Positions 1,011-1,250 of a stretch of 64,000 bases of DNA are shown one piece after another. How positions within the stretch are numbered: position 1 is the first letter of the stretch; every line of letters begins with the position of its first letter. The notes beneath the pieces are model-generated. The model saw only the letters and a program-made list of their open reading frames with translations, ran no database searches and was not told where the DNA came from. Origin of the DNA: Escherichia coli (GTDB lineage: Bacteria; Pseudomonadota; Gammaproteobacteria; Enterobacterales; Enterobacteriaceae); assembly GCF_051903065.1 (NCBI RefSeq), contig NZ_CP178438.1, one strand, 5' to 3'. The position numbers and the translations under genes were made by a program.

Positions 1011-1250
1011 GGCTGCCGGATGCGGCGTAAACGCCTTATCCGGCCTACGATTATGTTCCGGTTTGTAGGCCTGATAAGACGCACAGCGTCGCATCAGGCA
1101 ACGGCTGTCGGATGCGGCGTAAACGCCTTATCCGACCTACGGTTATGTTCCGTTTGTAGGCCTGATAAGACGCACAGCGTCGCATCAGGCAACGGCTGCC
1201 GGATGCGGCGTAAACGCCCTATCCGGCCTACGGTTATGTTCTGGCTCGTT
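1011..1250. repeat. REP/BIME array: about three ~95-bp units, each with a REP palindrome pair (gccggatgcggcgtaaacgcc...ggcctac / gtaggcctgataagacgc...gcatcaggc)
   Basis: Directly visible tandem near-identical units in the tldD-yhdP intergenic region; matches the E. coli REP consensus. Confidence 0.8.

Follow-up and report, generated by a model that had tools for sequence, protein, structure and literature searches.

A BIME-2 array of five REPs in the yhdP-tldD spacer of Escherichia coli, an ordinary element whose unit number varies among strains

REP/BIME arrays have been known since the 1980s. In the published classification, BIME-1 elements join Z1 and Y REPs in a single copy through a long L linker, in many cases with an IHF site in it, while BIME-2 elements are built from Z2 and Y REPs with short linkers and occur in tandem copies (Ton-Hoang 2012, PMC3333891). 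The REPs of E. coli share hallmarks that are needed by TnpA-REP, namely a GTAG/CTAC foot, a stem and a two-base mismatch (Ton-Hoang 2012, PMC3333891). One BIME-2 is known between tldD and yhdP. When gyrase cleavage was mapped in E. coli W3110, this element was named as holding multiple sites; Y REPs were cut more often than Z2 REPs, and the BIME-2 signal went up when transcription was blocked with rifampicin (Sutormin 2019, PMC6379681). A longer array of the same type, REP325, separates the tandem genes yjdM and yjdN, where it cuts downstream transcription approximately 8- to 10-fold, partly via Rho, and stabilises the upstream message, and its deletion shifts the expression of neighbouring genes approximately 3- to 10-fold (Harris 2026 preprint). 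Genome-wide, where REPs lie between tandem genes, expression is biased towards the upstream gene, although the variance is wide, and REPs have no general effect on half-life (Harris 2026). Stem-loops have also been described as keeping PNPase and RNase II from degrading Rho-dependent 3' ends (Dar and Sorek 2018).

The window analyzed here is a 64-kb stretch of E. coli DNA that contains one such array. Tandem Repeats Finder placed it at 1009-1255 (period 91, 2.7 copies, 92% matches, score 431), the sole tandem repeat with a score of at least 60 across the window, and a self-repeat search aligned 90-nt copies at 1061-1150 and 1152-1241 with 97% identity. Repeats had been reported at 1011-1250 in an earlier note made from the sequence. 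They do exist, those coordinates are accurate to within a few bases, and the self-comparison that the note proposed recovers the single array and its near-identical copies. The unit of approximately 95 bp given there is too long, however, as the measured period is 91-92 bp. The description as three units of paired REPs is right in that near-identical REP units are repeated in tandem, but the array comprises 2.7 units and five REPs rather than three complete pairs. The five palindromes run in the order Y-Z2-Y-Z2-Y and are accompanied by what seems to be a vestigial sixth. A BLAST-short scan of the whole 64 kb found no REPs other than these five, each having an E-value of approximately 1e-15 in 64 kb. 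The linkers alternate in length, 15-16 nt (the GGTTATGTTCCGTTT type) and then 7 nt (AACGGCT). The parts of the array, numbered by window position, are as follows.

1009..1255, no strand assigned: entire BIME-2 tandem array, period 91 bp, 2.7 copies, from Tandem Repeats Finder and the self-repeat search
1015..1048, minus strand: Y REP no. 1 (Y1), GTAG foot 5' on that strand, AA/GC mismatch in the stem, agreement with the REP325 Y consensus at 34/34 positions
1049..1064, no strand assigned: 16-nt linker GATTATGTTCCGGTTT between the CTAC/GTAG feet of Y1 and Z2a
1065..1099, plus strand: Z2 REP a (Z2a), GTAG foot 5' on the plus strand, contained in the Rfam naRNA4 alignment
1100..1106, no strand assigned: short 7-nt linker AACGGCT, 6 nt shorter than the REP325 linker
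1107..1140, minus strand: Y REP no. 2, with a compensatory C-G to U-A change at the second stem pair
1141..1155, no strand assigned: 15-nt linker GGTTATGTTCCGTTT
1156..1190, plus strand: Z2 REP b, same sequence as Z2 REP a
1191..1197, no strand assigned: second short 7-nt linker AACGGCT
1198..1231, minus strand: Y REP no. 3
1232..1265, no strand assigned: linker-like GGTTATGTTCTGGC and weak 20-nt hairpin TCGTTGGCCTTTGGCAACGA (1246-1265), from alignment

The ends of the 20-nt remnant at 1246-1265 (GTtGGCCT...GGCAACG) resemble the two ends of a Z2 REP, suggesting a vestigial Z2 from which the interior was deleted. The segment that includes it, 1232-1265, is unchanged in one-REP alleles and in other Escherichia species.

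The array lies wholly inside the 338-bp spacer between two genes, next to a conserved segment on either side:

1..967, minus strand: 5' part of tldD (metalloprotease TldD), ATG at 967, product starting MSLNLVSEQ, gene extending past the window edge
968..1008, minus strand: conserved tldD leader and ribosome-binding region (ending CTCTACTGCAGTAACTAACGAGTAGCAAAAACG before the ATG), downstream of the array
1266..1305, minus strand: conserved block directly after the yhdP stop, TTGACG at 1304-1299, 17-nt spacer, CAATCT at 1281-1276
1306..5106, minus strand: yhdP, 1266 aa, stop codon TGA at 1308-1306

Because yhdP and tldD are both on the minus strand, the order along that strand is yhdP stop, spacer with array, tldD start. 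The same orientation is given by the annotation of K-12 MG1655 and by RefSeq for E. coli Combat11I9, to which the window is 100% identical and in which both genes are placed on one strand. The two genes had been taken for convergently ending ones in the earlier note, which is incorrect; they are co-directional, and the array stands upstream of tldD rather than between two gene ends. Two open reading frames that cross the array (1020..1349, plus strand, 109 aa; 1051..1185, minus strand, 44 aa) are composed of repeat sequence and were rejected as genes, and the RefSeq annotation of the identical genome has no CDS over the array. Elsewhere in the window, an rRNA operon occupies 27052-32397 on the minus strand (16S, 23S, two 5S genes split by a tRNA, two spacer tRNAs and a StyR-44 match), the array being located approximately 26 kb downstream of it along the operon's direction of transcription, and an Alpha-operon ribosome-binding-site element is found at 46073-46184.

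Every REP in the array has the GTAG/CTAC foot, a stem of 7+4 or 7+5 bp and an AA/GC internal mismatch, and successive REPs alternate in orientation. Relative to the REPs of REP325, Y1 is identical to the consensus, and the Z2 sequence differs by one deletion and one substitution, both in the loop. Individual REP hairpins fold at -17 to -21 kcal/mol, and a 351-nt minus-strand RNA at -147 kcal/mol (z = -7.1). In 12 distinct Y variants that the locus provides in E. coli and in further Escherichia species, pairing is kept in 97.7% of stem cells, with C-G to U-A compensatory changes at two stem pairs. The sample is small, and the support that it gives is modest. With Y/Z2 units in alternation, short linkers, tandem copies, an extragenic position and a unit number that varies between strains, the array is a BIME-2 by the published definitions. 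Its description as a standard, non-novel REP/BIME array between tldD and yhdP was therefore correct, matching both a published BIME-2 type and a published locus. The array is a real and ordinary element, already reported from the same place.

Two Y-Z2 pairs of the array match the Rfam model RF02564 (naRNA4), which was built from one Y-Z2 pair of REP325:

1068..1137, minus strand: Y-Z2 pair matching RF02564, 77.3 bits against a gathering score of 59.5
1159..1228, minus strand: second Y-Z2 pair matching RF02564, 76.7 bits against a gathering score of 59.5

Both matches span the full model (positions 1-77), with E-values of 3e-14 to 8e-12, well outside what chance would produce, and the only departures from it are a linker 6 nt shorter and a Z2 loop 1 nt shorter.

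Of the two proteins that the earlier note had named as binding such arrays, gyrase is confirmed at this locus by published in vivo cleavage, obtained for the K-12 allele (Sutormin 2019, PMC6379681). Table DS3 of that paper has columns for cleavage sites with Cfx, RifCfx, microcin B17 and oxolinic acid (PMC6379681). In the rows of Table DS3 that were compared, the tldD-yhdP element of K-12, at 307 bp, has 35, 13, 3 and 10 sites in these four columns, sucB-sucC has 6, 4, 0 and 5, aceA-aceK has 8, 2, 0 and 2, and a 582-bp interval taken to be REP325 has 0, 2, 0 and 0 (PMC6379681). After the 35 Cfx sites of tldD-yhdP, the next-highest BIME-2 rows have 8 or fewer, among the rows compared. BIME-2 elements thus vary widely in cleavage, for which linker sequence, period or Y variant may be responsible: several arrays of 280-390 bp in these rows have 0 ciprofloxacin sites, as does the longer REP325. 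Because REP325 belongs to the same family and is twice as long, yet has 0 ciprofloxacin sites, family membership alone is without predictive value for gyrase cleavage. The tldD-yhdP array, in its K-12 seven-REP allele, is a strong, transcription-independent site of gyrase binding and cleavage in vivo. By analogy with that allele, the five-REP form in the window would be bound and cleaved in the same way. IHF is a different matter. Its binding belongs to the L linker of BIME-1 (Ton-Hoang 2012) and the array is a BIME-2, in which the IHF consensus WATCAANNNNTTR has 0 matches at up to two mismatches on both strands of 968-1305, with approximately 2.7 expected at the window-wide rate; the proposed IHF binding is accordingly not upheld.

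The K-12 strain MG1655 has a 429-bp spacer with seven REPs, equivalent to the window layout plus one extra 91-bp unit. For a survey of alleles, a query made of the flanks only was used, which matched 5,425 genomes, and 60 loci were sampled evenly down the ranking. One REP was found in 35 of the 60 sampled spans, seven REPs in 23 and five REPs, the type in the window, in one; the remaining locus was split. With a 601-nt query, 3,675 genomes reached at least 80% coverage, corresponding to the one-REP and five-REP alleles together, while 106 genomes reached at least 80% coverage of a 501-nt query and have the five-REP length, 42 of them being at least 99% identical to the window. The shares among 5,426 E. 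coli genomes are approximately 66% for one REP, 32% for seven (K-12 type) and 2% for five; these figures are estimates, and lengths such as three or nine REPs, absent from the 60-locus sample, could still occur. Comparison across E. coli genomes therefore agrees with the expectation that copy number varies between strains, with alleles of one, five and seven REPs.

The five-REP length occurs in at least two sequence backgrounds, the haplotype of the window and a K-12-like haplotype. The latter equals MG1655 minus exactly one internal 91-bp unit and is carried by E. coli W and its derivatives and by the K-12-derived assemblies GM4792, EMG2 and MG1655-pvir. The shortening by one unit in K-12-derived assemblies is due either to recurrent loss of a unit, that is, instability within laboratory lineages, or to collapse of the repeat during assembly. 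Because unit number at the locus is homoplastic and possibly subject to mis-assembly, it is a weak typing marker when used alone. As such, the suggestion that the array could serve for typing holds in that its length varies, but the value of that length is limited by its presence in two or more backgrounds and by the one-unit differences between K-12 derivatives. The split locus belongs to strain BH100 (NZ_CP024650.2), in which an IS1397-family element with a frameshifted transposase sits in the apical loop of the single Y REP, flanked by a GTGA target duplication. Some insertion sequences are known to prefer REPs (PMC1525189), and the BH100 insertion is consistent with this.

Outside E. coli, the spacer was examined in 80 species representatives with close TldD relatives and was readable in 78 of the 80 loci. 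In most genera the yhdP-tldD spacer measures 72-101 nt and contains no REP, as in several Citrobacter, Klebsiella, Enterobacter, Kosakonia, Kluyvera and Buttiauxella. The spacers of E. albertii, E. whittamii and two cryptic Escherichia species are 148-155 nt long and have one Y REP, laid out as in the one-REP allele of E. coli; in the representative of E. coli itself there are five REPs, with point changes of its own. Independently inserted REP pairs, slightly displaced relative to the Escherichia insertion, occur in a few Citrobacter (Citrobacter youngae, Citrobacter sp. wls619, C. werkmanii and C. portucalensis) and in two subspecies of Salmonella enterica (diarizonae and arizonae). From this distribution, REPs appear to have landed in the yhdP-tldD spacer repeatedly. 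The spacers of 200-213 nt in Raoultella, Enterobacter sp. 10-1 and Klebsiella spallanzanii, and those of an apparent 696-789 nt in two further loci, probably hold insertions other than REPs, or else the 3' end of yhdP is interrupted there. As other Escherichia have one REP and most other genera have none, the array gained its multiple units recently, within E. coli. That expansion is non-essential at this locus, given the single REP of most E. coli and the REP-free spacers of most other genera.

Every REP insertion falls between the conserved block that follows yhdP and the conserved tldD leader. The post-yhdP block is ungapped in all species and reads TGATTTGACG, approximately ten variable bases and AATTGCCnCAnnCTC. 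Across an alignment of 61 distinct enterobacterial sequences, the columns without variation include TTGACG and, after a further 17 nt, C-A-n-n-C-T. The possibility that the block forms a conserved RNA hairpin was rejected, since RNAalifold predicts zero pairs on the 61 sequences, and in the absence of a consensus structure the conservation is at the level of primary sequence. The pattern of invariant bases marks 1266-1305 as a candidate tldD promoter upstream of the array, with a putative -35 element at 1304-1299 and a -10-like element at 1281-1276; a sigma-70 scan missed it because its -10 is poor. A sigma-32-like reading of the same block, TTGACG-N14-CCnCA, is possible as an alternative. No start sites or 3' ends for yhdP or tldD were found in the supplements of Dar and Sorek 2018, Ettwiller 2016, Conway 2014, Cho 2014 and Kim 2012. 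A literature text search for tldD, yhdP and promoter returned no papers, and the sole result of one for tldD with a heat-shock sigma factor was a sigma-28 SELEX entry for the spacer between aaeR and tldD, which is unrelated. Within the array, the minus strand has a sigma-70-like site at 1077-1050 (TTATCA-16-CATAAT, 9/12), which was discarded as being within chance, 0.5 being expected per region. It consists partly of Z2 REP and partly of a haplotype-specific G-to-A change in the first linker, which is missing in the K-12 allele.

Taken together, the explanation that we favour comprises the BIME-2 identity of the array, its origin, its action as a gyrase site and a barrier role in RNA, and as a whole we give it a probability of roughly 85%. 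On this explanation, an ancestor of all Escherichia acquired one BIME-like unit in the spacer, and the 91-bp Y-linker-Z2-linker unit was later amplified or lost in some E. coli lineages, probably when units recombined or slipped against one another or through TnpA-REP, the transposase associated with REPs. The array is expected to be transcribed along the minus strand, on the path from yhdP into tldD. There, by analogy with REP325, its five stable hairpins would probably block 3'-to-5' exonucleases and so protect the ends of yhdP mRNA, and they would partly attenuate transcription entering tldD, in each case acting on transcripts from yhdP or from the candidate promoter. A combined function as partial terminator and mRNA stabiliser, modelled on REP325, is thus plausible. 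In K-12, tldD is well expressed despite seven upstream REPs (base mean approximately 6,976 in one RNA-seq table), so any barrier to transcription is at most partial.

The main rival holds that the expanded array has no local function and is neutral to selection, being selfish DNA or DNA prone to slippage, and that gyrase cleavage and any RNA effects are by-products. It fits all of the data and is compatible with the DNA and RNA effects proposed above; we consider it a real possibility, at somewhat less than even odds. The absence of a REP at this position from most enterobacterial genera, the single REP in approximately 66% of E. coli genomes and the differences in unit number between K-12-derived assemblies, which come with no known phenotype, all agree with neutrality, as does the transposase-based model of BIME amplification (Ton-Hoang 2012, PMC3333891). 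Neutrality sits less easily with stem pairing that is kept with compensatory changes, although gene conversion among the units, or a constraint imposed by the transposase, could also explain that pattern. It likewise does not lead one to expect the exceptional gyrase signal at tldD-yhdP, nor the 3- to 10-fold change in neighbouring expression on deletion of REP325.

If the block at 1266-1305 is a promoter, the array lies in the tldD 5' UTR as well as downstream of yhdP. An increase from one to five to seven REPs would then extend that 5' UTR from approximately 120 to 300 to 390 nt, and the strongest known BIME-2 gyrase site would sit within the tldD leader. Microcin B17, a gyrase poison, is processed by TldD, as is CcdA, the antidote to the gyrase poison CcdB. 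REP number might therefore tune TldD output, or couple TldD to gyrase occupancy or supercoiling, in a lineage-specific manner. We consider this improbable and rate it low because the candidate promoter is putative and the basis for the idea is a coincidence of functions.

The units could also be regarded as genes for naRNA4-like nucleoid-associated RNAs, which together with HU would bridge REP cruciforms and condense the chromosome, a role proposed for the units of REP325 (Qian 2015, PMC4550694). The two matches above the gathering score of RF02564 are on the transcribed strand, as that role would have it. However, RF02564 is in effect a model of a Y-Z2 pair and therefore matches any BIME-2 unit, and the linker here is 6 nt shorter than that of REP325. 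For REP325 itself, neither the array nor the naRNAs had an effect on nucleoid compaction, no stable HU-cruciform-naRNA4 complex was found and REP-REP contacts were absent from Hi-C (Harris 2026), leaving this reading very unlikely. Slighter still are the chances that the array is a cluster of intrinsic (Rho-independent) terminators that ends the yhdP transcript. Stable GC-rich hairpins just downstream of yhdP would suit it, but in a scan of 850-1500 there is no terminator-like site and no minus-strand hairpin followed by a U run; the last Y is followed by A6 rather than U, and U tracts are missing from most REPs (Harris 2026). With no U tract after the minus-strand hairpins, the REPs here are not intrinsic terminators. 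That the array is an IHF-binding BIME-1 (RIP/RIB) element can be dismissed, for the general statement that some BIMEs bind IHF is outweighed by its Z2 and Y REPs in place of a single Z1-L-Y with a long L linker bearing an IHF site, its linkers of 7 and 15-16 nt and tandem copies, the lack of a WATCAANNNNTTR match in 968-1305 at up to two mismatches, and the classing of the locus as BIME-2 in the table rows of Sutormin 2019 (PMC6379681) compared here.

The discovery value of the array is small, and what it offers is practical. Natural alleles with zero, one, five and seven REPs across Escherichia and its relatives make the locus a convenient system in which the effects of REP number on gyrase binding, and on expression of a tandem gene pair, can be approached.

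Related systems that have been described include the REPIN/RAYT systems of Pseudomonas and the E. coli REPtron (TnpA-REP), where a domesticated Y1 transposase is believed to mobilise or amplify inverted REP doublets. What TnpA-REP needs for binding, the GTAG foot and the stem mismatch, is present in the window array; unlike in those systems, there is no transposase gene at the window locus. BIME-1/RIP/RIB elements have the Y REP and the general palindromic architecture in common with the array, which differs from them in being tandemly repeated and without Z1, L linker or IHF consensus. REP325/naRNA4 (RF02564), the 12-REP Y/Z2 array between yjdM and yjdN, shares REP types, tandem arrangement and co-directional flanking genes with it. 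In comparison with REP325, the window array has a period of 91 rather than 100 bp, five REPs instead of 12, and linkers that are different and shorter; in the table rows compared, REP325 has 0 ciprofloxacin gyrase sites against 35 in the K-12 tldD-yhdP array. The family as a whole is the BIME-2 of the Gilson/Bachellier classification, as given by Ton-Hoang 2012 (PMC3333891). Closest of all is the K-12 tldD-yhdP BIME-2 (Sutormin 2019, PMC6379681), with the same locus, genes, Y/Z2 units and linkers. That element has seven REPs and the array studied here five, the latter being the K-12 array minus one 91-bp unit, with a few point differences, and its first and last Y carry substitutions specific to its haplotype.
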